Source: Candidatus Babeliales bacterium
Lineage (GTDB): Bacteria > Babelota > Babeliae > Babelales > JANWKD01
Length of the DNA: 64,000 nucleotides
Assembly (NCBI GenBank): GCA_963722255.1
Contig: CAVRJO010000002.1
Location: forward strand, 448,001-512,000
Reading direction: 5' to 3'
Shown here: positions 20,595-58,481 of the stretch, piece by piece
Layout of the letters: every line of letters starts with the position of its first letter
Numbering within the stretch: the first letter of the stretch is position 1
The notes under the pieces: model-generated
What the model was told of the DNA's origin: nothing
The model's database searches: none
What the model saw: only the letters and a program-made list of their open reading frames with translations
Program-made: the position numbers and the translations under genes

Positions 20595-21293
20595 ATGAAA
20601 AACTATTTTCTTTTACTATTACTTTTCTTTGCATGGTGCAAAGGTATGGAAAACAGGGAAGAACTTCCTTCAATCAGAGAGCAGTTTCCAGATCTTTTCC
20701 AAAACAGAGAAGAATACCCTCATAACCTTGGATTGAGCTTTAATTTCCCACCATATTCAACTGATCAAAACCCTATGCCTGAATACGTAGAAAATTCAGT
20801 CAGTGCTATACAAAATAGTAACATTACCCTCGAAGAATCTGGCAATCCCTATAAATTTCAATGCATTTTCCCCAACTGTGCCATTTTTTCTCTTTGGAAA
20901 AAGTCAATCGACACTCATATACGTTCGCACACTGAAAAAAGACCTTATGTTTGTTCAACACTAAATTGTAATGCAGCTTTTAAGAGAAAAAATGACCTAA
21001 CCCAACACAAAATATCCCATAACCCTGTCAAGAAAGTTACTTGCTCGTTTCGTGGATGTACTAAAACTTTTACAAGACAATCTGATCTAAATAATCACTT
21101 GCTAAAGTTTCATCATATTAGTCTTCAAATTGAATGTAATGAATGTGATGCATCATTTGATAGAATACATTATGAAAAACATTGTAAAGAATTACATCCT
21201 GAATTAATTTATCAATGTTATCTCTGTGGTAAAAGATTTTACTCAGTGAAAGGTAAACGAACCCATTTTTCACAGAATCACAAATCAGCTTAA
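20595..21293 (+). CDS. Secreted C2H2 zinc-finger protein (5 fingers)
   Basis: Signal peptide; CX2-4C..H..H repeats with HTEKRPY linker. Confidence 0.9.
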   Translation: MKNYFLLLLLFFAWCKGMENREELPSIREQFPDLFQNREEYPHNLGLSFNFPPYSTDQNPMPEYVENSVSAIQNSNITLEESGNPYKFQCIFPNCAIFSLWKKSIDTHIRSHTEKRPYVCSTLNCNAAFKRKNDLTQHKISHNPVKKVTCSFRGCTKTFTRQSDLNNHLLKFHHISLQIECNECDASFDRIHYEKHCKELHPELIYQCYLCGKRFYSVKGKRTHFSQNHKSA

Positions 21294-21333
21294 CTATTTT
21301 TACAATCTCTTTATCAGCTTAGGATCTTTTATT

Positions 21334-22338
21334 ATGATAAAAAACTATTTTTTTGCATTATTACTTTCTCTTTCAGCATGCTGCAAAGGCATGGAACATA
21401 ATACCGGACAACTCCATCAGAAACTTCCTCGCATTAAAGATCATTTTTCAGATCTTTTCCCTCAACTTCCATCATTAAACTCTGAGGCCCCGGACATTTT
21501 ACCGCAAGGTGCATACCAATTGCTTTCCTTGGCTTACCGCAATAGCCTAGAACAGAATACTGATAGCATGGAAGAGGACACTGAACAACCCGATCAAACA
21601 GTTCCTTCCCTTAGAGAACTCTTTCCAGATCTTTTCACAATTGGAGAAGAATATCCTCAACATCCACCATTAAATTCTGAAACACAAGACATTTTAGCGC
21701 ACAGAACATACCTAGCTCCTTATGTTGAAGCATCATATAATTATTCCTTAGAAGAGACACCTAATTATCAAGTACAGACACCTCAAGTAAATGAAATCCC
21801 CAGTCCTAAAGAGCAGTTAACTATTATTCAATATAATACTCCACAATCACCGCAAAAATTTTACTGCGCACTTGGATGTGGAGTATTTTCATTGTGGAGA
21901 ACAAGTATAAAAACTCATGAACTTGCCCATACCGATGGAAAAAGAGTTCATACTTGCGATGCACCCAACTGCCATGCAACTTTTACTAATAAAGCTCAGC
22001 TTTCTACACATAAAAGAATGCACAATCCTACAGTGCTCTGCAGGGTCCAAGGCTGCAATAGAGCATTTGCACGAACTGATAATAGAGCAAGACACGAAGC
22101 AAGGCACCTTCAAAAAAAATCCTTCAAATGCGAAAGATGCGGAGCAGGATTTATAGAAAAAAGTGACTACAATAGACATAATGAACAACTTCATGAAAAA
22201 AACCACTTTCAATGCATTAAATGCTGTAAAAAACTATTTAATTCTTTTGGTAGACTACAACAACATTACAATAAGAAGGTCCGTAAAGGCGTACTAGAAA
22301 AATGTGCCGGCAAAATAATTGTTGCAGAAAACGTATAG
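21334..22338 (+). CDS. Secreted C2H2 zinc-finger protein (about 5 fingers)
   Basis: Signal peptide; P/Q/acidic region; fingers such as CRVQGCNRAFARTDNRARHEARH. Confidence 0.9.
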   Translation: MIKNYFFALLLSLSACCKGMEHNTGQLHQKLPRIKDHFSDLFPQLPSLNSEAPDILPQGAYQLLSLAYRNSLEQNTDSMEEDTEQPDQTVPSLRELFPDLFTIGEEYPQHPPLNSETQDILAHRTYLAPYVEASYNYSLEETPNYQVQTPQVNEIPSPKEQLTIIQYNTPQSPQKFYCALGCGVFSLWRTSIKTHELAHTDGKRVHTCDAPNCHATFTNKAQLSTHKRMHNPTVLCRVQGCNRAFARTDNRARHEARHLQKKSFKCERCGAGFIEKSDYNRHNEQLHEKNHFQCIKCCKKLFNSFGRLQQHYNKKVRKGVLEKCAGKIIVAENV

Positions 22339-22352
22339 TTCAAAACTTTCTT

Positions 22353-22505
22353 TTATGCCAAATCATCAACAACGATTTTTATATCATTGTTTGGACTTGC
22401 TCTGCTCATAAACTTATACCTATTAAAATCTCTGAAACAATTGATTGAAATTTTGCCTTAAACAAAGAACAGATGCCAACGGTTTCTTTAGGTTATAATT
22501 TTGTA
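22353..22505. pseudogene. Duplication junction: pilin 3' remnant (minus, 22353-22390) fused to a PAP2 3' remnant (plus)
   Basis: Matches 23660-23697 and about 20370-20483. Confidence 0.85.
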
Positions 22506-22613
22506 AAAGATAATTTTAAATTACCTTTTACAAAAGAGCTTTTCTTTGACATAATTCATATAGAATCATAAAAAATTCATTTTTTAACAACTACAAAAGA
22601 AATATCAACTTAT

Positions 22614-23630
22614 ATGAAAAACTATTTTTTTGCATTATTATTTTTCTTTGCTTGCTGCAAGAGCATGGAACATACTACCGGAAGACTTCCTTCCATTAGA
22701 GAGCAGTTTCCAGAACTTTCCTTTCAACTTCCACCATTAAATTCTGAGACATCAGACATTTTAGCGCACAGTTCACCCCAATTGCTTTCCTTGGCATGCT
22801 ATAATAGAATGGAACAGACCACTGATAGCATGGAAGAGGACACTGAACAACCCGATCAAATACTTCCTTCCATTAGAAAACAGCTTTCAGGTTTTTTCAC
22901 TCAAACTCCACCATTAAATCCTGAACCACAAGACATTTTAGCGCACCGAACATACCTAGCTCCTTATGTTGAAGCATCATATAATTATTCCTTAGAAGAG
23001 ACACCTAATTATCAAGTACAGACACCTCAAGTAAATGAAATCCCCAGCCCTACTGAAGAGCAGTTAACTATTATTCGATACATACCCTCTCCAAAATCAC
23101 CGAACACACTCGCTCCAAACATACCCACTCCAAAATCAGCACAACAATTTTACTGCGCACTCGGATGTGGAGTGTTTTCATTTTGGAGAAAAAGTATAAA
23201 ACTGCATGAACTCGCTCATATCGATGAAAAAAGAATTCGTATTTGCGATGAACCAAATTGCCATGCTGCTTTTAGTGATAATAGTGCACTTACTAGACAT
23301 AAAAATATGCACAGGCCTACACTGCGCTGCCGATTTCAAGGCTGCAATAGAACATTTGCACGAAAGGATAATAGAATAAACCATGAAGAAACACACAAAA
23401 AAAGATCCCTTCAAAAAAGTCTCTTCAAATGTTTAAGATGCAGGGCAAAATTTACAATAGAAGGTGACTACAATAGGCATAATAAACAACGTCATAAAGA
23501 AAATGGCTTTCAATGCATTAGATGCTGTAAAAAACTATTTCATTCTAAAGGTAAATTATGTCAACATTACAATAAAAAGATCCGTAAAGGCATACTAAAA
23601 AAATGTGACGGCAAAATAATTGTTGCATAA
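22614..23630 (+). CDS. Secreted C2H2 zinc-finger protein (about 5 fingers), paralog of 21334-22338
   Basis: Long identical DNA blocks with the 21334 gene; C2H2 repeats. Confidence 0.9.
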   Translation: MKNYFFALLFFFACCKSMEHTTGRLPSIREQFPELSFQLPPLNSETSDILAHSSPQLLSLACYNRMEQTTDSMEEDTEQPDQILPSIRKQLSGFFTQTPPLNPEPQDILAHRTYLAPYVEASYNYSLEETPNYQVQTPQVNEIPSPTEEQLTIIRYIPSPKSPNTLAPNIPTPKSAQQFYCALGCGVFSFWRKSIKLHELAHIDEKRIRICDEPNCHAAFSDNSALTRHKNMHRPTLRCRFQGCNRTFARKDNRINHEETHKKRSLQKSLFKCLRCRAKFTIEGDYNRHNKQRHKENGFQCIRCCKKLFHSKGKLCQHYNKKIRKGILKKCDGKIIVA

Positions 23631-23659
23631 ATTGTATAGTTAAAAATCAAAACTTTCTT

Positions 23660-24142
23660 TTATGCCAAATCATCAACAACGACTTTTATATCATTGTGAT
23701 GATTCACCGTTAATAGATCTGCAGTACCATCTCCATCAATATCTCCGGCTGCTGCAATAATAAATCCTTCTTTATCGGCTTTAGTTGTCCCTAATGCAGA
23801 TTGCGGCGCTGACAATTTGCCAGTAAAATAGTTTTGTCCTTCTTGGCCTTGATTAAATCCATAGGTGTAATTAAATTTTTCTTGCGCTCCACCACCAGAA
23901 TATCCTTCCGGCTTCCAGCCAATACCATCTTTACCAAGAAGCACAGATGAAAAAGTTCCATTTTCAGCCCAATAAGTCTTTTGTGCAACATATAATGAGC
24001 CTAAATTCATGTAAGCCTCGGCTCGTTTAGCCTTTGAAAGAAATTTTAAGAAACTTGGAACAGAAATCATTGATAAAAAACCTATAATAGCTACCACTAT
24101 CATAAGCTCAATCATAGTAAAACCCTGAATATTTCGCTTCAT
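23660..24142 (-). CDS. Type IV pilin (PilA-like)
   Basis: G|FTMIELMIVVAIIGFL class III signal; C-terminal DIDGDG. Confidence 0.9.
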   Translation of the reverse strand: MKRNIQGFTMIELMIVVAIIGFLSMISVPSFLKFLSKAKRAEAYMNLGSLYVAQKTYWAENGTFSSVLLGKDGIGWKPEGYSGGGAQEKFNYTYGFNQGQEGQNYFTGKLSAPQSALGTTKADKEGFIIAAAGDIDGDGTADLLTVNHHNDIKVVVDDLA

Positions 24143-24634
24143 TGACCCTACCCTAACCCTATAAAGCTTTATTGATATCATGATAGTGTAATGAGGATGC
24201 CTAAAGTCAATAATTTTGAAAAAAATAGATTTTCCCAGGAAAAAGCTTTACTAAAAAGATTAGTGATTTCAAAAGTCATATTCCTATTCATTAAAATGGT
24301 TTTTGACCAACCACTAGAAATATTTTCTATTTGAAACAATCAAAAGCTTTAAACCATCACACATAAAGCTATTTATACCTGTAAAACAGCCGCTTATCAT
24401 TTTTAATCTTTTGTAAATACTAGGCAGGTTTTTTCATATATAATTCAATGTTTGACATTTTTAAAAAATATTATACTATTAAATAGAAGATAGGACCCCA
24501 TCAAAGGCAAACTAAACAAGTTCTATATAATTTAAGTATTCGCTTTCATATTATTACTGCTTACCGGCTAATTAATATCAATCAGCAATAATAAATGAAG
24601 AGGTTTTTTAAATACATTCTATTTTGGAGAAAAA

Positions 24635-26107: not shown

Positions 26108-26110
26108 TCT

Positions 26111-26386
26111 ATGATAACATCCATCATTGTTGGTTCACTCTTAGGAATTATATATGGGCTTTCTTTCTTTGTCACAAAGAAGAAAGCCCTTTCTTCTTAT
26201 TCTTCACAGGCGACAGTTCTTCGTGTCGCAGCATTTTCATCTTTTCGTCTTCTTTTTATTTCGTTAATATTTTATTATCTATTGCTACAACATAATCTTA
26301 ATTATATACTGGTTTTGGTATCATTTTTAATTACCTTATGGATCACTGTTATAACTAAGAGCGATATGCGTTTATGGAAGGCTTAG
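26111..26386 (+). CDS. ATP synthase protein I-like membrane protein
   Basis: Small TM protein with SSFRLL, immediately upstream of atpB. Confidence 0.55.
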   Translation: MITSIIVGSLLGIIYGLSFFVTKKKALSSYSSQATVLRVAAFSSFRLLFISLIFYYLLLQHNLNYILVLVSFLITLWITVITKSDMRLWKA

Positions 26387-27117
26387 AAGTTTTTAATGTC
26401 GAACATGTATGGCATCCACTTAAATTGCTTGGCATTGATTCATCTATAATCAGTATCACCATCCCAACTGTCATTAATACGTGGATTGTTTTATTCGTTT
26501 TAACGGGATTTATTCTACTTTTTCGATTACTACTTTATAAAAGTAATGTTGTGACTTTTCTTGTACATTCGTTTGTCGATTCATTTATAGAGCTTTCAGT
26601 TCAATCTTTAGGTAGCTTTAACTACACCCATTTTGCTTTCGTTTTTTCTATTTTTGTGTTTATTCTTTTGTGTAATTGGATTGCTCTCATCCCTTTTGTT
26701 GAAGAACCAACAAAGGATATCAATACAACGCTTGCACTGGGATGCATATCGTTTTTTTATAAAGAATTTTATGCGATAAAAACACATGGCTTTCTTGCCT
26801 ATATTAAAGAATTTTTTCATCCTTTTTTTGTAATGTTTCCACTCAATCTCATAAGCCATTTTTCAAAAATCATTTCAATATCATTTCGCCTTTTTGGAAA
26901 TATCTTTGGTGGTTCAATCATTACTCAAATCTATACGAGTGCAATTTCACTCTCGTTCTTAACTGAACTCTTTGGCTTATTATCAGGAATAAATTTTTTA
27001 GTACTTTCTTTTTTTATCCTTTTTGAAGGCTTAATTCAAGCGTTTGTTTTTACTATGTTAACGCTAACCTATCTTGCTATTGCAGTACAAACTGAGGAAG
27101 AAGAGGCACCCATATAA
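26374..27117 (+). CDS. atpB: F0 ATP synthase subunit a
   Basis: PTKDINTTLAL, SFRLFGNIFGG, IQAFVFTML. Confidence 0.93.
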   Translation: MEGLEVFNVEHVWHPLKLLGIDSSIISITIPTVINTWIVLFVLTGFILLFRLLLYKSNVVTFLVHSFVDSFIELSVQSLGSFNYTHFAFVFSIFVFILLCNWIALIPFVEEPTKDINTTLALGCISFFYKEFYAIKTHGFLAYIKEFFHPFFVMFPLNLISHFSKIISISFRLFGNIFGGSIITQIYTSAISLSFLTELFGLLSGINFLVLSFFILFEGLIQAFVFTMLTLTYLAIAVQTEEEEAPI

Positions 27118-28082
27118 TGGAACATATAAGTTCATTTCTTCATTATGGAACAATCTTGTTTATTATTGGTACTACTTCTCTTGGCACCGGTATTGGTGGC
27201 GGCAAAGCAACCATGAAAGCTCTCGATGCACTTAATTGCTCGCCAACATCTTTTCCTGAAATTTTTAGAGCTCTCATCATAGGCCTTGCTCTTATTGAAA
27301 CAAGTGCAATTTTGGGTATCGTTATGGGACTCATTCTTATTCTCGGGCAACCCCTGCAGGACAACGGAAATCTCTTTATTACGCTGGGTGAAATAGGCAT
27401 TGCATTCGCTTTAGGAATATCAGGAGGACTCGTTGGACTTCTTTCAGCATTACCTGTGCAAGAAGCCGTCTATGCTATTGCTCGGCAACCATTTTTTAGT
27501 AACAAAATTTTAAATACAATGCTTTTAACGCAATCAATTGTTCAAACACCGGTAATTTTTAGTTTTTTAATTGCCTTATTTATTAAAGGACAAATAGGCG
27601 CCGTAACTACCTACGCAAATAGTATACGTTTAGTAGCAAGCGGATTATGCATTGGCATTGGAAGCATAGGGCCAACTATTGGCTTAGCTCGTTTTGCACA
27701 AATTGCTAATAGATGTATAGCATTCAATCGAGAAGCCTATTCAACGCTCATGCCATTCATTTTTGTCAGTCAAGCAATTATCGAAACACCTATAATTTTT
27801 GCTGTGCTTGTTACGATTATTTTATTATTTACGCCAATAAAACCTGATAATGAAACATTAGGGGCGCTATCATGTATTGCGGCAGCATTCTGCGCTGCTC
27901 TTGGTACCTTAGGACCCGGTATTAGTTCCGGCAAAATTGCATCTGCTGCATGCAAGGAAATTGCTTTAAATCATGAAAACAGTTCTATCATTTCTCGAAC
28001 AAGCATTTTGGGACAAGGCATTATCGATGCTGCAGCCATGTATGCTTTACTTGTTGCATTGATTATTATAATTTTGAGGTAA
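27117..28082 (+). CDS. atpE: F0 ATP synthase subunit c made of four fused hairpin repeats
   Basis: Four Gly-rich helix/loop/helix units; ARQP loop in repeat 2; ion-site residues LIET, IVQT, IIET, IIDA. Confidence 0.85.
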   Translation: MEHISSFLHYGTILFIIGTTSLGTGIGGGKATMKALDALNCSPTSFPEIFRALIIGLALIETSAILGIVMGLILILGQPLQDNGNLFITLGEIGIAFALGISGGLVGLLSALPVQEAVYAIARQPFFSNKILNTMLLTQSIVQTPVIFSFLIALFIKGQIGAVTTYANSIRLVASGLCIGIGSIGPTIGLARFAQIANRCIAFNREAYSTLMPFIFVSQAIIETPIIFAVLVTIILLFTPIKPDNETLGALSCIAAAFCAALGTLGPGISSGKIASAACKEIALNHENSSIISRTSILGQGIIDAAAMYALLVALIIIILR

Positions 28083-35296: not shown

Positions 35297-36166
35297 TTAT
35301 TTAAAATGATTTGTTCTTGCTTTATAAAGCGCTAAAGAATCGATAGCATCTAATAACTTTAGGTCTTTTGCCTCTTTTTTACTCTGCCAATATGCTTCAC
35401 AATGAATGCTAAGATTCGGAATGCAATAACCATTAAAGTTAAGCCAACTAAACAGTCCGGTTAATCCAACCACACTTCCCAAAAATACGTTTCCCGTTGC
35501 GCATAATGCAAGACTCCCACCGGTACAAATTCCCGAACCATAGGCACAAGTTGAATCACCAAACTTTACGCAGTTTTCCTTAAATGAAGATTTTTTGTTC
35601 CATTGGCGCATCCATTCTAAGAGCGTAATTCTTGATGCCATCCATAATTTAGGTGCATCAGAGAGCTCTTGGAAATTGTCATTAAAATAGTTTGTTTGCT
35701 CTTTTGATAATATTTTTTCAACAGCATCTGCCAAAGCATTATGATCAATAGCTACACGACTAAAAAGATCATACATTTCAAAAGATTTTTCACTAAACGC
35801 AGCTAATGCTGTATCAATAGTAGCATCTTCTTCTAAAGATCTATAAACATTTTCAATATCACTACTTCCATTTTCTTCTACAAATTCTGAATACTCATCA
35901 AATTCAAAATAATAACCATATAGATGCGGCACGTACTTATTCATACGCATTGGAAATTCAAGAGTCTTTTGATAAAGGCTTAATTGGCCATTGTGTTTTG
36001 AAAGATCAGCGCAACTTTTATGAATCACTACCATCGTAGCTATGTGATATACCAATAAGCCATAATTTTTTTGATTAAGAGGAACATCTTCAACAGCGAT
36101 CTCTTTTTCCATCGAAAAAAGTGAACAACTAAACGTCAACAATACAACACATACAAGTTTTTTCAT
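35297..36166 (-). CDS. Secreted hypothetical protein with C-terminal TM hairpin (paralog of 36342)
   Basis: Shares FNDNFQELxDAPKLWMASR with 36342-37169. Confidence 0.75.
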   Translation of the reverse strand: MKKLVCVVLLTFSCSLFSMEKEIAVEDVPLNQKNYGLLVYHIATMVVIHKSCADLSKHNGQLSLYQKTLEFPMRMNKYVPHLYGYYFEFDEYSEFVEENGSSDIENVYRSLEEDATIDTALAAFSEKSFEMYDLFSRVAIDHNALADAVEKILSKEQTNYFNDNFQELSDAPKLWMASRITLLEWMRQWNKKSSFKENCVKFGDSTCAYGSGICTGGSLALCATGNVFLGSVVGLTGLFSWLNFNGYCIPNLSIHCEAYWQSKKEAKDLKLLDAIDSLALYKARTNHFK

Positions 36167-36251
36167 ATACAACTCCTTCTAGCAAGCAGTGAAACACTCA
36201 AGACATGGTAATGAAAAAGTATACTAATTTCAAGTTTGGTCTATAGTCGAC

Positions 36252-36341: not shown

Positions 36342-37169
36342 TTAATTGTTAGTATAACAAGCTAAGGAATCTATTGCTGCTGATAATTTTAAGTCTCTCT
36401 CTTCTCTTTTATTCTGCCAATATTCTGCGCAATTAAAATTTAAATCCTGAATACAATGTCCTTTGAAATTCAAACATGTTGATATCCCCGTAAGCACCAT
36501 AATGGCTCCGAACAAAAAATTCCCACTCGTACATGATGCAATACCTAAACCAGTGCAAACTCCTGGACCATAGGACGTAGCATGATCACAAAACTCTGCA
36601 CTTTTTTCGAAGAATGGGTGTTCCTTATTAACATGCCGCATCCATTCAAGCAGTGCCATTCGAGAAGCCATCCAAAGCTTTGGTGCATCAGTTAACTCTT
36701 GGAAATTGTCATTAAAAAACTCTATTTGCTCTTTTGTTAACATCTCTTTCACAGACTCTTCTAACTGTTTATAATCAATATTTTTACCAGAATAAGCATC
36801 ACGCGCTTCAAACGAACGTTTACAATAGGTATCCAAAACTGCCTCTAAATCATTATCTTCTTCTAATGCTCGAGCTACAGACCTTATGTCACTTTGACCA
36901 TATTTTTTAATAAAACTTTTATACTCTAATTCAGGTAGAGGATGCTTGCACATACATGCCGGAAAAGTAATCACTTTCTGACAACACATAAAACTAACAT
37001 TTCTCATATAAAAATTTGATTTACTTGTATGAATAACCACCATTGCTGCTATATGGTGCGACAATACTTTATCAGTTTCATTAAGAAAAACTTCGGCCGA
37101 AACATCTTCTTCCATTGAAAATAATGATCCACTAAAAATCAATAGCAAACCAAATACCATTTTTTTCAT
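36342..37169 (-). CDS. Secreted hypothetical protein (paralog of 35297)
   Basis: Signal LFS|ME; shared motifs with the 35297 gene. Confidence 0.75.
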   Translation of the reverse strand: MKKMVFGLLLIFSGSLFSMEEDVSAEVFLNETDKVLSHHIAAMVVIHTSKSNFYMRNVSFMCCQKVITFPACMCKHPLPELEYKSFIKKYGQSDIRSVARALEEDNDLEAVLDTYCKRSFEARDAYSGKNIDYKQLEESVKEMLTKEQIEFFNDNFQELTDAPKLWMASRMALLEWMRHVNKEHPFFEKSAEFCDHATSYGPGVCTGLGIASCTSGNFLFGAIMVLTGISTCLNFKGHCIQDLNFNCAEYWQNKREERDLKLSAAIDSLACYTNN

Positions 37170-41073: not shown

Positions 41074-41994
41074 ATGGGTGGGAAAATGAAGTATCGCTAT
41101 TTTTATTCTTTTCTGTTCCTCTTTTCATCTTCTTATACGCAACCCTTTGATGTAATACCTTATATCAGTCCTATTTTTTCTTTCATGGTAGGCACATTCA
41201 CCTATTTTTCTTTCATCACCGATCATTTTATCCCCGCTTCTAGGCAAGAACTTTATACTACTGAGCAAAGAATCACAAAAATGCATGAAAACAACAGATG
41301 CATTATGCAAGAATATGCTCAAAAAAATATTCGCGAGCAGTATGAGCAAACAAAAACGGAAGTTGAAGCTAAAATAGATAGTGCAATTGCTACCTGTTAT
41401 CAAAAATCACGGGCAATAAAAGAAGCATTAGATTCCACACAAACACTCATTATAAAAAAAATAGAAAGAAGTCATCGCATCAGAATGCAATCACTCAAAA
41501 ATAATCTTGCATCCTATGCAGATTCTACGCAAGAAGATATCACTGCGCTCATAAAAAAATTAACTCTTGCATATGAAAAACGAGAGAGTCAAATTCAACA
41601 CCAATGCACTCAAATTCTCAATCTACTGAGCAACTTTCAAAAAAAATTGCATCAAAAAACAATAACTACACAACGGATTATACAAAATACCACTCAAGAA
41701 CATACAAATCTGCTCACAAACAATCATGATCAAATAAAAAACAACTATGACCAGACTGCAGAAAAATGTAACCATTTTTTTATACAAACTTCTGAAAAAC
41801 TAGACGCCATCGAACGATTGTGTTGCATCCTTAAAGGAGTCATTGCAGAACAAAAACAAAAAAATATTGCACTCTATAAGCAAATTCTTGCATTAAAAAA
41901 ACTACGAAAAAATGATTCACTTCTCTCTATTAAAAATGCATTTGGTTCAAATAAATCTTTAAAGAATTATAGTAACTTGGATTACAAACAATGA
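41074..41994 (+). CDS. Membrane-anchored coiled-coil protein
   Basis: Signal, hydrophobic segment, long Q/K/T-rich heptads. Confidence 0.7.
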   Translation: MGGKMKYRYFYSFLFLFSSSYTQPFDVIPYISPIFSFMVGTFTYFSFITDHFIPASRQELYTTEQRITKMHENNRCIMQEYAQKNIREQYEQTKTEVEAKIDSAIATCYQKSRAIKEALDSTQTLIIKKIERSHRIRMQSLKNNLASYADSTQEDITALIKKLTLAYEKRESQIQHQCTQILNLLSNFQKKLHQKTITTQRIIQNTTQEHTNLLTNNHDQIKNNYDQTAEKCNHFFIQTSEKLDAIERLCCILKGVIAEQKQKNIALYKQILALKKLRKNDSLLSIKNAFGSNKSLKNYSNLDYKQ

Positions 41995-42932
41995 TTTCAG
42001 TTTTTTGTAAAAACTCAATGAGAACAACAATCTTCCTCATAGTAAGCACTCTATTCTTTCAAATAAACTGCATGGAAAGAAATCAACTCATCCTTTTAGT
42101 AATAAAACAAATTCTTGCCTCTATTAAACCGATTCAAGAACCAATAAGTAAATCATTTTTACAACAATCGCTAGAAACGACCAAAGATATTTCTTTAAAA
42201 CTTTTTATCGCATGTTATAAACATCCAAAGATCATTATTGGCGCTACAACTTTGACCCTTCTTTTAATTTCGCTCAAAAAATCTTCTCTTTTGCCGATTA
42301 CCATACATAATTTAAAAAAATTTGAGCAGAAATGCGCAAAAAAAGCACAAAATCAGATAAGAAAATTTATGGAAAACACTGCGAAATCTTCTCAAGAAGC
42401 TTCTCGGCAACTTACTACCTCAATTGATGCATCACAAACACAATTGTTTGTGCTTAACGATGAACTTGAACAAAACCAACAAGTTCTCATGCAAATGCCT
42501 GAAGAAATTGCACAATCAGTTGCTTTATACAATGTTCAAGAAGAAAAAAACCACGATGAACTTTTTTCACATGCACATAGACAAAGAACGACACAGCTTA
42601 ATACGTTAGAAACGCATGCCAGGAATCTTATGGATAATGACGAGATTATTGTTACTGACTTTTTAAAAAAATTTCTTACTGAAACGACTCAATTAGATAA
42701 TTCATTGGATTTTAACATTGAAACCATTGTGAACTCATTAGCGCAAGAAACGGCACTACTTCATCAGACTATGCATCAAAACAATCACCAAGAAAACCTA
42801 CAGCTTACTCGCCTGAATTCAACGGTAGATAATCAGCATAATAATTTGGCCGAACGTGTTGACTCTCTAATTATTCTTCTTACAGGATTAGTTGATACAT
42901 CTGAAGAGTTGGTGTATGAAAAGACATTATGA
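41991..42932 (+). CDS. Membrane-anchored coiled-coil protein
   Basis: Signal INC|ME, HPK followed by a TM segment, heptads. Confidence 0.7.
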   Translation: MISVFCKNSMRTTIFLIVSTLFFQINCMERNQLILLVIKQILASIKPIQEPISKSFLQQSLETTKDISLKLFIACYKHPKIIIGATTLTLLLISLKKSSLLPITIHNLKKFEQKCAKKAQNQIRKFMENTAKSSQEASRQLTTSIDASQTQLFVLNDELEQNQQVLMQMPEEIAQSVALYNVQEEKNHDELFSHAHRQRTTQLNTLETHARNLMDNDEIIVTDFLKKFLTETTQLDNSLDFNIETIVNSLAQETALLHQTMHQNNHQENLQLTRLNSTVDNQHNNLAERVDSLIILLTGLVDTSEELVYEKTL

Positions 42933-43058: not shown

Positions 43059-44057
43059 ATGACTTACAAACGTTCATCAATCTTTTTTACCGCATTATTG
43101 TTTTTTTTGTTGCAGCACCAATCTGTACAAACAATGGAAAATCAATCACAACCTTCACATTCAAATAAATTGAGTATCTTCAATCCATTATCCTGGGTTT
43201 ATGGATTATACTCTAGCTTTTATTATAATTTTGGATGGATGACAGATGCTGCTTGTGAAGAAAAAATAACAGCATCATTTAATAAATTGGAGAAATTCAT
43301 TCAAGTGATGTTTGCAGATATCCTTGATGGAAATCATAGCTTTGCTCAGCAAATTTTAGAAGATGGTAAAAACTTACATGACATACTCAATTCTACCACA
43401 ATAAATGTCCAAGATTTAAAACTCTTTTTTTTAGGAAAAATACAATCATTAGAGAAAGAACGACAAATAACAAATGCAATATTTGAAAAAACTATTAATG
43501 ATTTAAGAAAAACACTACAAAGGTTTTCAAAAACTCGCCAGACTGTAAGTAACCTTGAGAAGCAATTTTCAATTTATAGCCAACTAACTCAAGAAGAAAT
43601 TGAACAAAATAATCAAAGTTTAAGCTCACTTGGAGAAAAGTACAAAGATAAAATTAAAAGTTTATATCGTCTTCAAGAAAAACATCACAAAGAACACCAA
43701 ATCCAAGTATCACAACTTCAGTCTCAACAACAAGACTTTTATCAGCAAACAACAGAAAGTCTTAAAGCTGTCCAACAAACAACGCAACAATGCCAAGAAG
43801 AATGCGAAAAGAAACAAGATAAGGGAACTCAAGAAGGAGAAACTATTCTTGAGTTATTACAAAAAATACGAGAAAATGATGTTGCTTTACAGAAAGTATT
43901 AAACATACTGCCTAATTCAACTAACCACGTTCAAGCAACTCCCAAAAAGTCAAAGCAAAAATCTCTTAACACCTCAGTCTTTCCTAACCGATTAAGAAAA
44001 GAATTTAAAGTTTTTGCTCCACCCATAGGTACTTCCATATATGGACGAGATATATAA
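43059..44057 (+). CDS. Secreted coiled-coil protein
   Basis: Signal VQT|ME, aromatic segment, Q/E/K heptads. Confidence 0.7.
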   Translation: MTYKRSSIFFTALLFFLLQHQSVQTMENQSQPSHSNKLSIFNPLSWVYGLYSSFYYNFGWMTDAACEEKITASFNKLEKFIQVMFADILDGNHSFAQQILEDGKNLHDILNSTTINVQDLKLFFLGKIQSLEKERQITNAIFEKTINDLRKTLQRFSKTRQTVSNLEKQFSIYSQLTQEEIEQNNQSLSSLGEKYKDKIKSLYRLQEKHHKEHQIQVSQLQSQQQDFYQQTTESLKAVQQTTQQCQEECEKKQDKGTQEGETILELLQKIRENDVALQKVLNILPNSTNHVQATPKKSKQKSLNTSVFPNRLRKEFKVFAPPIGTSIYGRDI

Positions 44058-44093: not shown

Positions 44094-45074
44094 ATGATTC
44101 AAGGAACACAAAGCATGAGAATTTTATTGTTATCATTATTCTTTACACAAGCTTGGTGTATGGAAAGCTCACAGCTAGTTATTGTTAAATTTGAAGATTT
44201 AAAAGAACTTGTTCAGCAGTGCAGCAAAGAAGCTGTTGCTGCAGCAATAAAGAAAGAATCCCCTTCTTTTTTTTCATCAACTTTTAAATTCATTGCAAAT
44301 CATCCAAAAGAACTGTGGGCAACAGTAGCATATGGTGCTATAGTTGCTACTTTCCTGGGATTTTCAAGAAGTAAATTTTTCTGGAGCACCCCAAAAAAAT
44401 TCGATGCTTTATTAGAAGCAAAAGAAACTGAACTTGTGAACGAGCTCTATGATATAAAAAATCTTATTGAAGCATCCCGTGCAAATGTAGGTTCAGCATA
44501 CCTCAATACTATGAACGGTCTTAATGCTGGTATAGCCGCCATCGATAACTCCCTGGGAGAATCTAAAAGAGAAGTGGAAGATGTTTATAGCAAAGCTCTT
44601 GCTCGTGAACTCAATCGCCGTTTAGTGCTTATTCAAAAAGCTACCATTACCTCACGTTTTACTCAAAACGGCATAAATACCCTTGATTCATCGCTTTTTT
44701 CTTTACAGTGCTCCGCTCTGCAAGAACAAGAAAAAATCAAGGATGAACTTGCGCAACAAGGAGAAGCAATCGCCGCTCTTGATGAAGACACTGAAAAGGA
44801 ATTTGATACAACAACCAACACGATGACCTCTAATCATGATGAGGAATCACGATCATTACATTCCTTGGGCAATCAAATGTCAGGAAATAATGAAGATATT
44901 CGAGAAACACTTCTTCACGTTGAGATTACTACAAGGGTTCTTGCAAAAAAACTTCCTACAGTTGATGATACCAATGAAGAAAATAAAGAAAATATCCGGG
45001 AAGCATTTAAAATTATTGAAAACCAAGCTCACCTCATTGCTCAACTTCAGGGCTTAGTGCAGGAAACTCAGTAG
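44094..45074 (+). CDS. Membrane-anchored coiled-coil protein
   Basis: Signal AWC|ME, HPK followed by a TM segment, heptads. Confidence 0.7.
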   Translation: MIQGTQSMRILLLSLFFTQAWCMESSQLVIVKFEDLKELVQQCSKEAVAAAIKKESPSFFSSTFKFIANHPKELWATVAYGAIVATFLGFSRSKFFWSTPKKFDALLEAKETELVNELYDIKNLIEASRANVGSAYLNTMNGLNAGIAAIDNSLGESKREVEDVYSKALARELNRRLVLIQKATITSRFTQNGINTLDSSLFSLQCSALQEQEKIKDELAQQGEAIAALDEDTEKEFDTTTNTMTSNHDEESRSLHSLGNQMSGNNEDIRETLLHVEITTRVLAKKLPTVDDTNEENKENIREAFKIIENQAHLIAQLQGLVQETQ

Positions 45075-47124: not shown

Positions 47125-47556
47125 TTATTGAGAATGTGCCTTCTTCTGTTTATTATATTTCTTTCGTATAGTTTCATAGCCCATCTTCGCGTCTTCGTCT
47201 TCAAGAATATGGTTATACATCTTGCTTCGATCTATTTCTTTTCGTGGACCTACTGTATACATCAGTTTACCATACCAAGTACATTTTTTTCCTCTACACT
47301 TTGTACGAGAAAAATAGATTTCCTTAATCTCTTCACTATTGCGAACCATCAAAGAATAGGCATATATTTTTATTCCGCTTTCTTTATTTTTTTCAACTTT
47401 TCTTTTTATAGTGCAATCAGTTTCATTAATTAATCTCTTCAATTGAATTTTATCTATTGTTTTTTTTGGATATCTATCTTGCAAATCTTCTTCCATACAG
47501 TAAAAACTGGTATTACCGATAAGAAAACTCAAAAATAAGATAGTAAATAATCTCAT
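47125..47556 (-). CDS. Secreted hypothetical protein
   Basis: Signal FYC|ME; basic mature part. Confidence 0.7.
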   Translation of the reverse strand: MRLFTILFLSFLIGNTSFYCMEEDLQDRYPKKTIDKIQLKRLINETDCTIKRKVEKNKESGIKIYAYSLMVRNSEEIKEIYFSRTKCRGKKCTWYGKLMYTVGPRKEIDRSKMYNHILEDEDAKMGYETIRKKYNKQKKAHSQ

Positions 47557-48619: not shown

Positions 48620-49969
48620 CTAATTTTGTTTTTTAAGTCTTAAATCTAAATCAGCTAAGGAATAATTAGTTACCTTTGAAGAATAGTCAACTAAGCAGAC
48701 ATTCGTATCATAAAACCATACTGATTTTGGACTTTCTATTCCTGTTAGCAAGACTTTACCAACTTTTCGCTCTTTCGGATCATGGCAATTCATAAAATTT
48801 AAATAAAGAAGTTGAAAACTCGTAACAAGAATAATTTGATGAGAGTCGCAAGGATTAACGGCAAAATTCTTTAAAAATATTGGATAAGTTTTTTCTTTAT
48901 TACTAATTTTTTGTTGTTCTGAACGAATGCTACTGCTCTCTTCATCTAATCCAAAACTAAATAATCTTCCAAATTCAGAAAGACCCAATAAGATCTTTGG
49001 CGTTATAAAACTAAGTTTTTTGATTGTATCACCTCTATGATCTTCATGAAATGATCCAAAACCAATTCGTCTTAGTGCTGTCTCATGTTCATGATTCATT
49101 TTTCGTTTTTTACGTTTAGGAGAACAGGGCAGTTCATCGCAATTTTTTACCTCAAACAGTGATATGCCCGCTTGATCGGCAATTGCAAAACGATTTTTAG
49201 TTCTACAAAGAGCTAATGCTAAAATAGAACCTACTATCCTTGTGGATATAAAATCAAATTTATTAGTATCTTTTTGAGAAAAATTATGACTTTCATAGAA
49301 TTCTTTGCAATCAGAAGTAAACCGTCCTACATAATATTCATATACCGCTTGTTGATTTTCAACAAGTTGAAGATCATCTTTTTCTAACCCTTCTTCATGT
49401 GCATAATCTTCTTCACCACATGATAGATTTTCTTCTGATTTTGAATTTCCAGCAATGACAAATACGTTATTTTTATTAGGACCATCAAAAAAAGGCTCTG
49501 TAATTTCAAGATTAGCTGATGTCACAAAGTGCATTTTTTGAATATCATCTTCAATTACATATTTCGTAGCACTATAAACCCTAAGAAGGGGCTTATCATC
49601 GCTATACCAACATTGTATGGGAAAAAGGAAATGCCTTCTGTCTCTTGTATTTACAAATCCAGATTCAGGGTTTAAATTAATCGATGGAGCCCATTCATGG
49701 ATACTAAATAATGTAATATCATGTAAAACATCTCTATTCTCCTCACGCGGCCCAAATTGAAAACATGATTTTCTATCCGAACTAAACTCAATTTCAGCAT
49801 CAGAATTTGTCGCTAATTCTATAATATGAACTAAGAGCTCATCTGGAACCATATCGGCAATGTTTATGAACTCTTCTTCTTTATCAACTTCAGATTGTTC
49901 CATGGAATAAAGATCGTTTTGCATCATCATTGCTACATTGAATAGTAAAAAAATGATCTTTTTATTCAT
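48620..49969 (-). CDS. Secreted protein with an F-box-like motif and a beta-rich (WD40-like) region
   Basis: MVPDELLVHIIEL; NLS-like PKRKKRK; beta-strand repeats. Confidence 0.6.
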   Translation of the reverse strand: MNKKIIFLLFNVAMMMQNDLYSMEQSEVDKEEEFINIADMVPDELLVHIIELATNSDAEIEFSSDRKSCFQFGPREENRDVLHDITLFSIHEWAPSINLNPESGFVNTRDRRHFLFPIQCWYSDDKPLLRVYSATKYVIEDDIQKMHFVTSANLEITEPFFDGPNKNNVFVIAGNSKSEENLSCGEEDYAHEEGLEKDDLQLVENQQAVYEYYVGRFTSDCKEFYESHNFSQKDTNKFDFISTRIVGSILALALCRTKNRFAIADQAGISLFEVKNCDELPCSPKRKKRKMNHEHETALRRIGFGSFHEDHRGDTIKKLSFITPKILLGLSEFGRLFSFGLDEESSSIRSEQQKISNKEKTYPIFLKNFAVNPCDSHQIILVTSFQLLYLNFMNCHDPKERKVGKVLLTGIESPKSVWFYDTNVCLVDYSSKVTNYSLADLDLRLKKQN

Positions 49970-50481: not shown

Positions 50482-50571
50482 TGATAAATCCCCATAGATT
50501 CGCAAAAATATAAAATATTCTGTACTATAAATAGTAATTAACGGAAAGCTATCTATTTTCAGGGGTATTCT

Positions 50572-51129: not shown

Positions 51130-52248
51130 TCATAATATAATTTTACTTTCTTTATATCGGATATGATCATAAATATCGGCATTAATCGAATAATACCACG
51201 CACTTATCAAGCCTATTGCAACCCCCCCTAAAATATATACATTTTGATATTCATTAGATTCGCTTTGCTTACCGGAATTGAGTAAAGGCAAATTATTTAT
51301 ATATGAAGCACCAAAACCCCCAACCCCAAATGCTATTGGGCGAATGGCCATATTAACAACTAATGTAATACGGTCAAAAGAGCAAAAAAGGCGTCTATGC
51401 CAGTCTTTTAAAGGCCGCATATAATTCCACTTAGTTGCATTCAAAGCAATAACCTTAGCTTGATCTGATAATGGATTATTCCTAAGATCAACCACACACC
51501 CTTCGTTGACTTTAAAAACCGGAATTGTTACAAGCATATTGTTTGACAGATTTAAGATAAAAAAATCCGGTAAACGATAGGGTAATTTTATTTGCTCCAA
51601 TTGATTATGACCAAGATCAAGTTGCTTTAAATTTGGAAATAACTTAAAAAGTTTATTTACGTTTACAAATCTTAATCGATTGTTATTTAAATTTATTGAT
51701 TCAGTAGAATCATTTGCCAGAGCACGAATTCCACCCAAATAACATACTTTTTTATCTACAAAATATAATTTTTTGGAACCAATTAATTCTCTTGAAACGG
51801 AAGCAATTGATTTTAGGCATTCATATAATCCCGGTAATTCTTTATTAATTTCATTTAAAGGCAAAATATCCCAAGCTCTTTTTTTAATTTTCTTAAGAAT
51901 TTTTTTTGGTGCTTCTAATGCATCAGCCAGTATAAAAATATCTTTTATTTTTTCCGCTTTACATCTTTCAGCCATTTCGTGTTTCATAATAAAGGATAAT
52001 AGTTGAAGGTTATCTTTGGAAAAAGCAGGTGTATCTTGTAATGAAAACTTAGTTACACTATCATCCTTTATGTCATCAGATTTTATATTCCATTTTTCTA
52101 TCACACCAAGCAGGCAAGCATCATCTTCAGGAATGCCAAATACAATTCCGTCAGCATCTTCGATAATAATTTCTTTGTTTTGTCGTTCCATAGCTACAAG
52201 AATAGAATTAGATAACAATAGAAATGAAAGCAGCAATAGTTTACGCAT
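51130..52248 (-). CDS. Secreted BTB/Skp1-like + leucine-rich-repeat protein with a C-terminal TM pair
   Basis: IIIEDADGIVFGI...IFILADALE; LRRs LDLGHNQL, LNLSNNML, VDLRNNPL; start MRKLL. Confidence 0.72.
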   Translation of the reverse strand: MRKLLLLSFLLLSNSILVAMERQNKEIIIEDADGIVFGIPEDDACLLGVIEKWNIKSDDIKDDSVTKFSLQDTPAFSKDNLQLLSFIMKHEMAERCKAEKIKDIFILADALEAPKKILKKIKKRAWDILPLNEINKELPGLYECLKSIASVSRELIGSKKLYFVDKKVCYLGGIRALANDSTESINLNNNRLRFVNVNKLFKLFPNLKQLDLGHNQLEQIKLPYRLPDFFILNLSNNMLVTIPVFKVNEGCVVDLRNNPLSDQAKVIALNATKWNYMRPLKDWHRRLFCSFDRITLVVNMAIRPIAFGVGGFGASYINNLPLLNSGKQSESNEYQNVYILGGVAIGLISAWYYSINADIYDHIRYKESKIIL

Positions 52249-55815: not shown

Positions 55816-55995
55816 ATGTTTTTAGATTGGTCAATTATCTTCTTTGTTCTTGCTTTAATAGCAGGATTTCTTGGTTTTTCAGGAATTTCAGCTGAAGCCG
55901 CAGGAATTGCAAAAATTTTATTCTTTATTTTTTTAATAGTATTCGTGATCTCATTCTTAATGCGCATGATGGGCAAAAAACCTCCTGTTGAATAA
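55816..55995 (+). CDS. DUF1328/UPF0391 small membrane protein (not in ORF track)
   Basis: MFLDWSIIFFVLALIAGFLGFSGISAEAAGIAKILFFIFL...; AAGGAG RBS. Confidence 0.9.
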   Translation: MFLDWSIIFFVLALIAGFLGFSGISAEAAGIAKILFFIFLIVFVISFLMRMMGKKPPVE

Positions 55996-56109
55996 AAAGA
56001 AATATCTCTTATTTTAAACTAAGGAGCCCAATATTTTCTGGGGCCCTTTTAACATACGGTATTTTGAAGAAACAAATTACCCTACTATCTTATTAGAAGC
56101 TGATTATAA

Positions 56110-56659
56110 AAATCCCCATAGATTCGCAAAATATAAAATATTTTGTACTATAAATAGTAATTAACTAAAAGATGTCAATTTTGAGGGGTATTCTATGAAT
56201 ATATATTTATTTCTAATGGCATTATTTATTGCGCCGCAACTAGCATTTTCTAATCATGAGAATAATAATAAAAAATTTTCTCCACCCCAACTACATTCGC
56301 AAAAATTTAATCCTTCATCTTCAGAGTTCATTAATATAGAAAATAAAATTCTTCCTAATAAAGACAAGGATGAATTACAAGCTTTAAAAAATAAATTAAA
56401 TACTAAATTGCTCAAAAATGAGCAATTGCAAAATAACCATGAAGGGCGGTTTAAAAAATTATTTGCTTTGTCACTGGCTAGCGCTGTAGTTAGAAGTTTA
56501 ATCCCCTTCTTTGGCGAAGGTCTGATTATGACTCCATTTATCGCTATTGCTGACGGACTTTGTTTTTTTAGTTTTTGTGAAGGATGGGCATCTTTATCCA
56601 AAGCAAAGGATTGCGCTAATAATGTTTGCATTACTCAAACGAAGCTTCAATCAGTTGAT
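56110..56659 (+). repeat. About 550-bp direct repeat of 50486-51036, containing the 3'-truncated gene copy 56195-56680
   Basis: Near-identical DNA up to ...tcagttgat, then unrelated sequence. Confidence 0.92.
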
Positions 56660-56729
56660 GTGGCTCTTTTTTCATCATGAAATATTATTAATAAGGTATT
56701 TTTATTGCCAAAAATACTGTAAAAATACC

Positions 56730-57323
56730 TTAACTAGCCACTTTATTCTTGCGATTTTGTTTATCAAAATCACGTTGTTCGTGCACAAATCTATAATCAG
56801 TAACCACTAGACGGCGAATACGTTCAAGCTTATTAACCAGAATATCTATCTGATTTCTTGTAGCCGCATCCGTATATAAAAATTCAGAAAGCCATAAACG
56901 ACGAATATACCAATCTAGATTGTTTTTATAATATAACAATGGATAATTTTTATATTTACTCTGTATAAAGAAATAGAGGCTATTATTGCGATCATGCTGC
57001 TCAAGAATAAATGGTATCAGCTCCTCTTGCAATACTTGCTCATTAAACGTTGCACGCAATAAAAGATCAAGCTCTGCTTCATAACGATAGAGAGCTACTG
57101 AATAGATACCGGCACTACAAAGACGCGCAATAAGATAACAACCTGCTGCACTAACAACTACCCCGGTAGTAGCAAGCGCAATATCTTTGATCGACATTCC
57201 TTGTTCATGAGTACCATGGGTAGAATAGGGATCATTCTGCCGAGTAGCATTAGATGAAGCGGTTATCAGATTTAGTAGTAAGATTACACAAAAAAATCGT
57301 TTACTTTTATGAATAGTGACCAT
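56730..57323 (-). CDS. Secreted hypothetical protein with a TM segment
   Basis: Signal-like N-terminus and a hydrophobic segment; start uncertain. Confidence 0.65.
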   Translation of the reverse strand: MVTIHKSKRFFCVILLLNLITASSNATRQNDPYSTHGTHEQGMSIKDIALATTGVVVSAAGCYLIARLCSAGIYSVALYRYEAELDLLLRATFNEQVLQEELIPFILEQHDRNNSLYFFIQSKYKNYPLLYYKNNLDWYIRRLWLSEFLYTDAATRNQIDILVNKLERIRRLVVTDYRFVHEQRDFDKQNRKNKVAS

Positions 57324-57425
57324 TATTTTTTTCCTTAAAGTACAATTAGAAGTATTTACTCTACTCAACCATTATCTTACCTATTTCTAATTAAAAAGTC
57401 ATGAAACATTATTTACAGACTTTGT

Positions 57426-58481
57426 TTACACAATATTTTCTTTTTCTTGAACTGAAAAATCAATAAGATCTTGTGGTCCAACATCCAATGCAGTTCGTGT
57501 TTTGACAATAGATTCTTGTATTTTTTTATATATATTTTTTTTGTGCCTATAGCCCGGAATGGCCGATTTTTTACACATACGCAATGACCATAACATCCAG
57601 GCTGAACCTACCAAAGCATTAAGAGATCCTAGTGCAATACATGAATTTTTATACTCAAAATCTGCACTCGTTGAAAAAAATAGTAAAAAAATATTAAGGC
57701 TAAAAAAACTAATCGACGCCGTATTCATCGATGTTAAACAAAAATTCCAACCCAAAGGCTTCTTAGGATTTCTATCGTGCGCTTTTTTTAGTAAAAAATC
57801 GAGATGTGCCAGATATACATGATGAATCTCTAAATATTCATCAGCTTCAGGAACTAAAAATAGTTCACATTTCAAATCCTCAAGACTATTCAACTGATCA
57901 CCCCATTGCAAGCGCGCTGTTTCCCGTTTTACCGATTGTGTAAAATCTTTCAGTTCATTTTCAAAATCACGAAGATCTGAAAGCTCCTGTGTGCAATAAT
58001 TCTCCAATGAAAATAAGGTATGTAAATAATTCCTACATTGTTTATGAATTGAATTATTGTGTAAGGGTGGTACATAATGCTGAAATTTAAGCAATTCATC
58101 GAGTATCCTTGCACGTTCAAGAGAAATATCTTTTGTTGGATCACTCTTATGAAACTGTCCAATTAATGAACCTATTTTAGCCCTCACAATTGCATTAACA
58201 ACATCTTGATTTGGTTCATAATGATGAATCAAATAGTTCAATCCAATGCCATGCGGATCACAATAACGGAAAATTATATCTATTAATTCGATAGGCAACC
58301 TGTCAAATAATGATTGTTCTTTGAATGAATCATAGCTTTGTATAGCCTGATCTGTAAGCAAGGGTGTTTTTGATAAATTCTTGCAATCACCTTCCATACT
58401 GTTGAGCGCTAGAATACTCATAACGCAAAGATCTAATAAGAGCACTATAAATAAAACTATTCTTTTTTTGACAAAGAGCAT
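57426..58481 (-). CDS. Secreted F-box-like protein with a C-terminal TM pair
   Basis: LFDRLPIELIDIIFRYC; start MLFVKK. Confidence 0.72.
   Translation of the reverse strand: MLFVKKRIVLFIVLLLDLCVMSILALNSMEGDCKNLSKTPLLTDQAIQSYDSFKEQSLFDRLPIELIDIIFRYCDPHGIGLNYLIHHYEPNQDVVNAIVRAKIGSLIGQFHKSDPTKDISLERARILDELLKFQHYVPPLHNNSIHKQCRNYLHTLFSLENYCTQELSDLRDFENELKDFTQSVKRETARLQWGDQLNSLEDLKCELFLVPEADEYLEIHHVYLAHLDFLLKKAHDRNPKKPLGWNFCLTSMNTASISFFSLNIFLLFFSTSADFEYKNSCIALGSLNALVGSAWMLWSLRMCKKSAIPGYRHKKNIYKKIQESIVKTRTALDVGPQDLIDFSVQEKENIV

Follow-up and report, generated by a model that had tools for sequence, protein, structure and literature searches.

In proteobacterial lipoproteins, a motif right after the cleavage site sets the compartment of the protein (the +2 "Lol avoidance" rule). 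For substrates of type II secretion, we know of no linear N-terminal signal, and recognition is thought to be fold dependent; our literature search likewise retrieved no such signal for these substrates in print. In Bacteroidota, an acidic motif right after the cleavage site, the lipoprotein export signal (LES), sends lipoproteins to the surface and to vesicles, according to the consulted portions of the reports (PMC5080379, PMC6222051, PMC10319031). In Plasmodium, it is the mature N terminus that decides export, even when signal peptidase generates it, as stated in the consulted part of a further report (PMC10653839). Here, we describe a junction at which a predicted Sec-type signal peptide is followed directly by Met, most often by Met-Glu, starting from a 64,000-nucleotide stretch ("the window," G000:C2:448001-512000) of a small, parasite-like bacterial genome of 1.62 Mb, 34% GC, and two contigs. 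The phylum consists of widespread protist parasites for which type II secretion is the only secretion system reported, and the junction bears on the way in which hundreds of eukaryote-like proteins reach the host.

The sequences establish that Met, often followed by an acidic residue, occupies the predicted signal peptidase I site of a mostly effector-like class of proteins, that it is absent from envelope housekeeping proteins, and that it varies between lineages. We hold this descriptive part (motif, position, class specificity, selection, and lineage distribution) with high confidence. More tentatively, the Met-acidic N terminus may be a selected sorting tag for host-directed effectors that is read on the bacterial side, a reading that we regard as credible but not yet as probable. 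No description of a Met junction was found in the full-text literature searched or in the accessible parts of Dependentiae genome papers, a scope outside which supplements and subscription journals fall; the junction looks like a so far undescribed address label for proteins destined for the host cell.

The junction resembles LES in placing a short acidic motif after the cut. In the consulted portions of the LES reports, the motifs are C-X-K-(D/E)2 and SDDDD at a fixed distance from +1 (PMC5080379, PMC10319031), and here the motif is Met-Glu, with Glu enriched to about +10. In contrast to LES and the +2 rule, which involve signal peptidase II and a lipidated Cys at +1, the proteins described here have an invariant Met, no lipobox, and a soluble-looking mature part. 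A lipoprotein assignment was rejected because +1 is Met and because Cys, found at -1 in 20/134 sites, is preceded by F, Y, N, or W and not by G, A, or S. As with the Plasmodium export element (PEXEL), hundreds of effectors would have a hydrophobic targeting segment and, once processed, expose an N terminus with E, Q, or D in second position that separates exported from resident (in Plasmodium, vacuolar) proteins, as far as the consulted part of the report goes (PMC10653839). The PEXEL route differs in being eukaryotic, with plasmepsin V cutting after RxL and no Met, whereas the present organism is a bacterium with A, S, G, or C at -1; a PEXEL element was rejected on this -1 pattern and on the absence of Arg among the common -3 residues. 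We know of no PTEX-like machine for this bacterial system. Like type II substrates, the proteins would travel in two steps, by a Sec signal peptide and then by exit from the periplasm, and secretins and T2SSE ATPases are predicted in the genome. Type IV prepilins, of which the window holds a true example (23660-24181), share a processing site followed by Phe or Met with Glu nearby, but they carry the hydrophobic stretch after the cut, Gly at -1, and Glu at +5, whereas here the core precedes the cut and Glu stands at +2. A prepilin leader was rejected on these grounds, the N_methyl motif being found only in that pilin.

Met junctions in the window and across the genome

The first-pass annotation had listed twelve candidate effectors in the window that share a junction of signal peptide and Met-Glu on otherwise mostly unrelated proteins. 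All twelve open reading frames (ORFs) are present, and each begins with a short positive n-region, a hydrophobic core, and a small -1 residue (in window order, G, G, S, S, S, C, T, C, C, S, A, and S), followed by Met-Glu. The junction codon pair is ATGGAA in 12/12 genes. Because the proteins form 9 blastp clusters, the claim that they are mostly unrelated also holds. In the following list, arrows mark the predicted cut and the last coordinates are those of the ATG-GAA pair.

20595..21293, + strand: C2H2 zinc-finger protein; signal peptide 20595-20645; CKG↓ME at 20646-20651
21334..22338, + strand: C2H2 zinc-finger paralogue; signal peptide 21334-21390; CKG↓ME at 21391-21396
22614..23630, + strand: C2H2 zinc-finger paralogue; signal peptide 22614-22664; CKS↓ME at 22665-22670
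35297..36172, - strand: orphan with C-terminal hydrophobic segments; signal peptide 36113-36172; LFS↓ME at 36107-36112
36342..37169, - strand: paralogue of 35297..36172; signal peptide 37116-37169; LFS↓ME at 37110-37115
41991..42932, + strand: orphan, probably coiled-coil; signal peptide to 42071; INC↓ME at 42072-42077
43059..44057, + strand: orphan coiled-coil protein; signal peptide 43059-43133; VQT↓ME at 43134-43139; weakest site (Thr at -1)
44094..45074, + strand: orphan; signal peptide to 44159; AWC↓ME at 44160-44165
47125..47556, - strand: small orphan; signal peptide 47497-47556; FYC↓ME at 47491-47496
48620..49969, - strand: LPxEL (F-box-like) helices and beta-propeller; signal peptide 49904-49969; LYS↓ME at 49898-49903
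51130..52248, - strand: leucine-rich-repeat (LRR) protein with C-terminal hydrophobic segments; signal peptide 52192-52248; LVA↓ME at 52186-52191; longest ORF extends to 52329
57426..58481, - strand: orphan with LPIELIDII stretch and C-terminal hydrophobic segments; signal peptide 58398-58481; LNS↓ME at 58392-58397; longest ORF extends to 58529

The domain labels first given to these proteins stood in part: Pfam recovered C2H2 in the three zinc-finger proteins and a weak LRR match in the 51130 protein, while F-box and BTB were unconfirmed at E≤0.001. No curated NCBIfam family matched any of the twelve. Word-based homologue searches with the 36342, 57426, and 51130 proteins returned the query itself and 0 to 1 relatives only, and the single relative of 51130 (P0042, 46% identity) retains LVA↓ME. 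As the annotation had also stated, the Omp85, HAD, and pilin genes of the window lack the junction. The Omp85 (4649-7150; IQA↓DQEK) and HAD (37387-38232; LFS↓ANII) proteins have non-Met junctions, and the pilin (23660-24181) has a prepilin N-methylation motif instead. We note that four of the twelve Met-Glu proteins (35297-36172, 36342-37169, 51130-52248, and 57426-58481, all on the - strand) have one or two long hydrophobic segments at their C-terminal end. Insertion of these effectors into a membrane is conceivable, and we take their hydrophobic C termini to resemble those of chlamydial inclusion-membrane proteins.

Genome-wide counts were made on a crude in-house set of 1535 ORFs of ≥90 residues (longest-ORF rule plus overlap filter). 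"ME" lies directly after a strong hydrophobic core in 134/1535 ORFs versus 19/1314 for a same-sized internal window, and the chance expectation, f(M) × f(E), is 0.00135; thus, chance does not explain the ME junctions. Other dipeptides in this place were MN (45 ORFs), MQ (40), MK (32), and MD (16). Aligned on ME, the 134 sites have A (n = 49), S (n = 31), G (n = 23), or C (n = 20) at -1, together 123/134, which bears out the proposal that the junction follows a hydrophobic core and a small residue. At -3, L (n = 41), I (n = 22), S (n = 15), A (n = 14), and V (n = 12) are most common, and L, I, S, A, V, T, or C account for 120/134. The core spans -14 to -7. The -1/-3 pattern is the classical grammar of signal peptidase I, with the cut predicted directly before Met, and small -1 and -3 residues, core position, and median signal-peptide length (22 residues for the Met class, 22.5 for the non-Met class) all agree with a Sec signal peptide. 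Lys occupies position 2 of the precursor in 42% of cases.

An in-house weight matrix covering positions -15 to -1 found 406 signal-peptide-like ORFs at a score that gave 1.7% in internal windows. Met was the +1 residue in 170 of them (42%), followed by Ala (n = 24) and Ser (n = 23), and the overall frequency of Met is 2.2%. Since this matrix had been trained on ME sites, it was retrained on the 236 non-Met sites alone, and Met was still at +1 in 147/420 ORFs (35%); a predicted cleavage elsewhere than immediately before Met, which would have contradicted the original proposal, was thus not what emerged. A rule-based count also made M the top +1 residue (146/855 sites), and a Met-anchored scan retrieved 219 to 250 ORFs against an internal-window null of 1 to 4/950. 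The union of the two main definitions comprises 204/1535 ORFs in which a Sec-type signal peptide with A, S, G, or C at -1 stands before Met, 137 of them ME. In a scan of 14 loci from unrelated bacteria, Met was at +1 in 0/23 sites. Met-class genes lie on both contigs at 1 to 11 per 40-kb bin, with the window at the high end; the junction is therefore real in the twelve window candidates but is a genome-wide rather than a local feature. In all, the Met class comprises about 200 to 250 proteins, or 13 to 16% of ORFs, roughly one ORF in seven.

At the 170 Met junctions, the +2 residue is E (n = 103), Q (n = 16), N (n = 15), K (n = 9), D (n = 6), H (n = 6), T (n = 4), S (n = 4), L (n = 3), Y (n = 2), or R (n = 2). 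The Met-Glu tag as first proposed therefore needs amending: Met at +1 is the invariant part, and an acidic or amide residue is preferred at +2, with Glu favored but not obligatory. Glu is also enriched at mature positions 3 to 10 (12.9% in the Met class versus 5.8% in non-Met secreted proteins), a gap that fades by position 20. Most Met-class proteins (184/204) have no further hydrophobic segment and hence look soluble, and no clear enrichment that could mark a shared C-terminal signal was seen in their last 20 residues. The genome has two Peptidase_S26 (signal peptidase I) genes. The paralogues, at C2:137884-138756 (-) and C2:701907-702764 (+), share 66% identity, and some 2.4 kb separate the former from a gene for a T2SSE ATPase, itself preceded by a MshEN-domain ORF.

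Proteins, lineages, and conservation

Clustered by blastp, the mature parts of the 204 proteins fall into 156 groups, 134 of them with a single member. A Pfam scan covered 216/406 signal-peptide-like ORFs (contig 2 and the first 116 kb of contig 1). Among the 76 Met-class proteins scanned, 59 had no Pfam family, and the 17 that had one comprised ankyrin (Ank; n = 7), beta-propeller/WD40 (n = 4), C2H2 (n = 3), F-box-like (n = 1), AAA (n = 1), and methyltransferase (n = 1) proteins; no envelope housekeeping protein was among these 17. Of the 140 non-Met proteins scanned, 50 had a Pfam family, and they include BamA/Omp85, OmpH/Skp, peptidase S41, M23, Amidase_3, SpoIID, GH3, and SIMPL, as well as many inner-membrane proteins in which the first helix was scored as a signal. 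This division agrees with the expectation that ME would be missing from ordinary periplasmic and envelope proteins, the ankyrin, WD40, C2H2, and orphan proteins being on the Met side. The non-Met set also contains one WD40 and three Ank proteins, one of the latter truly being SFG↓ME and misplaced by the matrix. Genome-wide, 18 of 34 ankyrin ORFs were assigned to the Met class automatically and about 25 on inspection; beyond the 18, seven have a small residue and Met 1 to 4 residues off the called site, and two have no signal. In the window, a eukaryote-like MYND zinc-finger protein (18062-19408, -) has a hydrophobic N terminus and no Met junction.

The 60 phylum-level relatives available all belong to the same order; the distribution of the trait was examined in 11 of them, with 100 to 400 kb sampled from each. 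The counts below give Met at +1 over signal-peptide-like ORFs; the ORF numbers are small for the last four genomes.

G001, same genus: 39/104
G003, same family: 25/61
G020, family f17: 21/48
G024, family f18: 14/48
G014, family f11: 9/39
G051, family f6: 4/45
G052, family f12: 0/25
G058, family f3: 1/16
G007, family f4: 0/10
G008, family f5: 3/28
G057, family f13: 0/19

The Met junction is thus present in four families of the order (23 to 44%) and rare or absent in six others (0 to 11%). In the closest named relative, a "Candidatus Babeliales bacterium" metagenome-assembled genome (55% SufS identity), 4/7 junctions at the locus are Met junctions (ME, MD, MN, and MH). The residue after Met shifts between lineages: Glu dominates in the present genome, G001, and G003, Asp exceeds Glu in G020 (D8, E4) and G024 (D5, E3; 200 kb each), and none of the four Met junctions of G051 has Glu or Asp at +2. 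E, Q, N, or D follows Met in 140/170 junctions of the present genome, 28/39 of G001, 21/25 of G003, and 15/21 of G020.

Within the Met class, conservation of the junction was followed in the family of the 48620 protein, for which a HMMER search yielded 37 representatives with 25 to 46% identity to the query. A hydrophobic N-terminal core is present in 28/37, and 27 of these 28 show a small residue and then Met ≤20 residues after the core; the nine coreless members are fragments or entries that begin at "ME...". Anchored on the junction, the family has Met in 27/27 and Glu in at least 19/27 sequences, and the flanking columns reach 14/27 at most. In a MAFFT alignment, M23 is among only 12 columns conserved at ≥90%. 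Between the present genome and the samples from G001 and G003, Met-class queries had 12 Met and 4 non-Met partners (two of the four being off-by-one calls), and non-Met queries had 47 non-Met and 2 Met partners; identity is 22 to 36% for the Met-class pairs listed. Three G001 homologues of the ORF at C1:784833-785453 retain A↓ME despite an insertion of about 20 residues before the homologous domain. These alignments establish that the predicted junction Met is under purifying selection.

The AlphaFold model of the 48620 protein (mean predicted local distance difference test score [pLDDT], 84) places the signal helix at residues 2 to 17 and the first folded element from residue 34; in the family, helices with a conserved LPxEL stretch and then a beta-propeller follow. 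Because residues 17 to 24 and 27 to 29 fall below pLDDT 50, the Met-Glu tag sits in a low-confidence, probably flexible tail of the modeled protein. Public gene calls for several family members (P0004, P0017, P0025, P0031, and P0032) open at the junction "ME..." without a signal peptide. P0025 equals the mature part of P0038; thus, some database entries begin at the junction ATG. This is also a warning for annotation, as such entries of one family have lost their signal peptides.

A proposed sorting tag and rival explanations

The reading that we favor can be set out as follows. Two classes of Sec substrates would share one cleavage grammar of signal peptidase I. Cleavage of the Met class would leave a Met N terminus, usually with Glu and less often with Gln, Asn, Asp, or Lys behind it, continued by a short tail that is enriched in Glu and probably flexible. 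Once the protein has been exported by Sec and cut, this tag would separate effectors (with ankyrin, WD40, C2H2, F-box-like, or LRR domains, or orphans) from resident periplasmic and outer-membrane proteins and would commit them to a second exit step, which could take place through a type II secretion/type IV pilus-like apparatus, in outer-membrane vesicles, or at the host interface. We infer that cleavage actually occurs at the predicted bond, that the tag is read, and what it is that reads it. Sorting on the bacterial side is favored because the acidic tail extends the signal, because the end is flexible, and because the nearest precedents work in this way. In its most specific form, a linear Met-acidic tag read by a machine in some families of the order, which moves >200 effectors from the periplasm into the host, the proposal is more doubtful still. 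If true, it would be the bacterial counterpart of the mature-N-terminus export signal of Plasmodium and the first linear export signal for a two-step route (Sec, then outer membrane).

The predicted export machinery fits such a route. The genome encodes two secretins and two T2SSE ATPases, to which the window adds the pilin or pseudopilin at 23660-24181. TatC (PF00902), VirB4, FHIPEP, VipB, and TolC/OEP were not found in this genome, which is 93% complete, and Tat substrates were rejected on the absence of TatC. As only Sec and type II secretion/type IV pilus-like parts were found, the two-step effector export suggested in the first-pass annotation is compatible with the machinery, and the interpretation given there has partial support overall. 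For other Dependentiae, the consulted parts of the genome papers report type II secretion as the sole system and signal peptides on most ankyrin proteins (PMC4378268, PMC4776705), and those of the Chromulinavorax paper report signal sequences on 44% of proteins and vesicle release.

Several observations weigh against a sorting tag. The cleavage sites come from in-house matrices applied to a crude ORF set. About 7/34 ankyrin proteins and many orphan secreted proteins of the genome have non-Met junctions, and one member of the Met class has a thioredoxin fold, with Met missing from its homologue in G001; thus, the Met class is not purely eukaryote-like. The samples from six families contain many signal-peptide-like ORFs with 0 to 11% Met junctions, so export of their secreted proteins needs no tag. 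Among the candidates examined, the second Omp85 and LepB, no tag reader was found: the Omp85 is present in 10/11 relatives regardless of the trait, and a LepB duplication was rejected because G014 has one copy with the trait and G052 two copies without it. Finally, a role inside the host fits the data about as well.

Met-Asp, -Glu, -Asn, and -Gln N termini are the NatB substrate class, and N-degron rules operate in eukaryotes. The tag may work in the host, by avoiding N-degrons or through acetylation or docking in the cytosol, and this may coexist with sorting. We consider the host-side role rather unlikely, although the match in dipeptide class is close: E, Q, N, or D stands at +2 in those 140/170 Met junctions versus 66/236 non-Met ones, the Glu/Asp shift in G020 and G024 is neutral for NatB-type specificity, and ankyrin, WD40, C2H2, F-box-like, and AAA domains act in the eukaryotic cytosol or nucleus. 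In eukaryotes, however, it is the initiator Met that is modified, on the ribosome, whereas here Met is predicted to be exposed by signal peptidase outside the bacterial cytoplasm. N-terminal acetyltransferases act mainly on nascent chains, so that their action on delivered proteins is conjectural. Under the classical N-end rule, small residues at +1 would stabilize as well, but Met holds the position almost exclusively; NatB reads less far than the Glu enrichment, which extends to about +10; and in relatives that lack the tag, many secreted proteins have Asp, Glu, Gln, Ile, or Leu at +1. A different possibility is that translation also starts at the junction ATG, so that each gene gives a secreted form and a signal-less cytoplasmic form. 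The invariant Met of the 48620 family and the public calls opening at "ME..." (including P0025, the mature P0038) would suit it, and U-rich signal-peptide codons could act as an unstructured leader; signal-less entries may stem from cut contigs or gene-caller choices. A Shine-Dalgarno-like motif precedes only 4% of junction ATGs, compared with 48% of signal-peptide starts and 43% of ordinary ones, so an internal start led by such a motif is unsupported. In proteins that lack a signal peptide, position 2 is Lys in 20%, Asn in 12.5%, and Glu in 7.3%, compared with 61% Glu at the junction; thus, neither an old nor a second start codon predicts Glu. As the -1 and -3 residues follow the peptidase rule and cytoplasmic copies of about 200 host-directed proteins would have no clear use, we regard a second start as improbable. 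A nucleotide-level signal was rejected as well: the junction Glu codons (GAA, n = 81; GAG, n = 22) match the genome bias, and no purine-rich or -10-like pattern was found upstream of the junction. The signal of the Met junction lies at the protein level and is not translational.

As another option, the first-pass annotation had raised the capture of a signal cassette upstream of what had once been a start codon. More generally, signal peptides could have been added before old starts, de novo or as a cassette, with Met a neutral leftover, which would explain Met at +1 in young, fast-evolving genes; most Met-class proteins are orphans (59/76 without a Pfam family). The 150 nucleotides before the junction are common to only 20/20706 gene pairs, however, 17 of which are paralogues, so 5' sequence is shared without the mature part in just 3 pairs. 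Met remains 27/27 in a family of 25 to 46% identity while neighboring columns vary, homologues in other genera stay in the Met class, ME keeps its place despite an insertion in the mature N terminus, and Glu is as scarce at cytoplasmic position 2 as stated above. The captured cassette was rejected on these grounds, and a relic origin is accordingly very improbable. Least probable of all, to the point of being negligible, is an artifact of crude ORF calling, AT-rich composition, or a circular matrix. The longest-ORF rule is simple and the first matrix was trained on ME sites, but M was top at +1 without a matrix and in 35% of ORFs with the non-Met one, internal-window nulls were 0 to 4/950, unrelated genomes gave 0/23 and relatives of similar GC 0 to 11%, and the upstream, real starts bear Shine-Dalgarno-like motifs. 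The relic and artifact readings are essentially excluded. A shared promoter word for Met-class genes was rejected, since only weak AT-rich words occur upstream (best, TTTGTA, 47/204 versus 108/958; p = 1.8e-5 over 499 tests).

For the sorting tag, the lineage pattern offers a way forward: as some families have the trait and others do not, phylogenetic profiling could find the reader, and a comparison of the two groups of families could lead to the reading machine. A two-residue tag on 13 to 16% of the proteome would also be a simple rule for listing candidate effectors, including orphans beyond the reach of domain searches, and it gives a testable hypothesis for telling exported from resident periplasmic proteins.

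Other features of the window

The protein at 4649-7150 (-) is a second Omp85/POTRA protein besides BamA (C2 360928-363618). Directly after the ATP synthase A chain gene (26374-27117), a 321-residue ORF at 27117-28082 (+) contains four ATP-synt_C stretches and is apparently a fused, multicopy c subunit. A family 4/group 1 glycosyltransferase is split into two overlapping ORFs (28167-28598 and 28589-29317, +), which may reflect a frameshift, a pseudogene, or a sequencing error. Tandem paralogues at 30526-31509 and 31575-32384 (+) are near-identical over their first ~60 residues, which take in the signal peptide (LQSA↓YRRAG, non-Met), and differ from there on. A 300-nucleotide direct repeat of 95% identity (50505-50804 and 56128-56427) spans the 5' portions of the genes for two small secreted paralogues (50572-51102 and 56195-56680; LFS↓NHEN, non-Met). 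Between its copies lie the LRR effector and a membrane protein of 900 residues that has a sigma-54 interaction domain.

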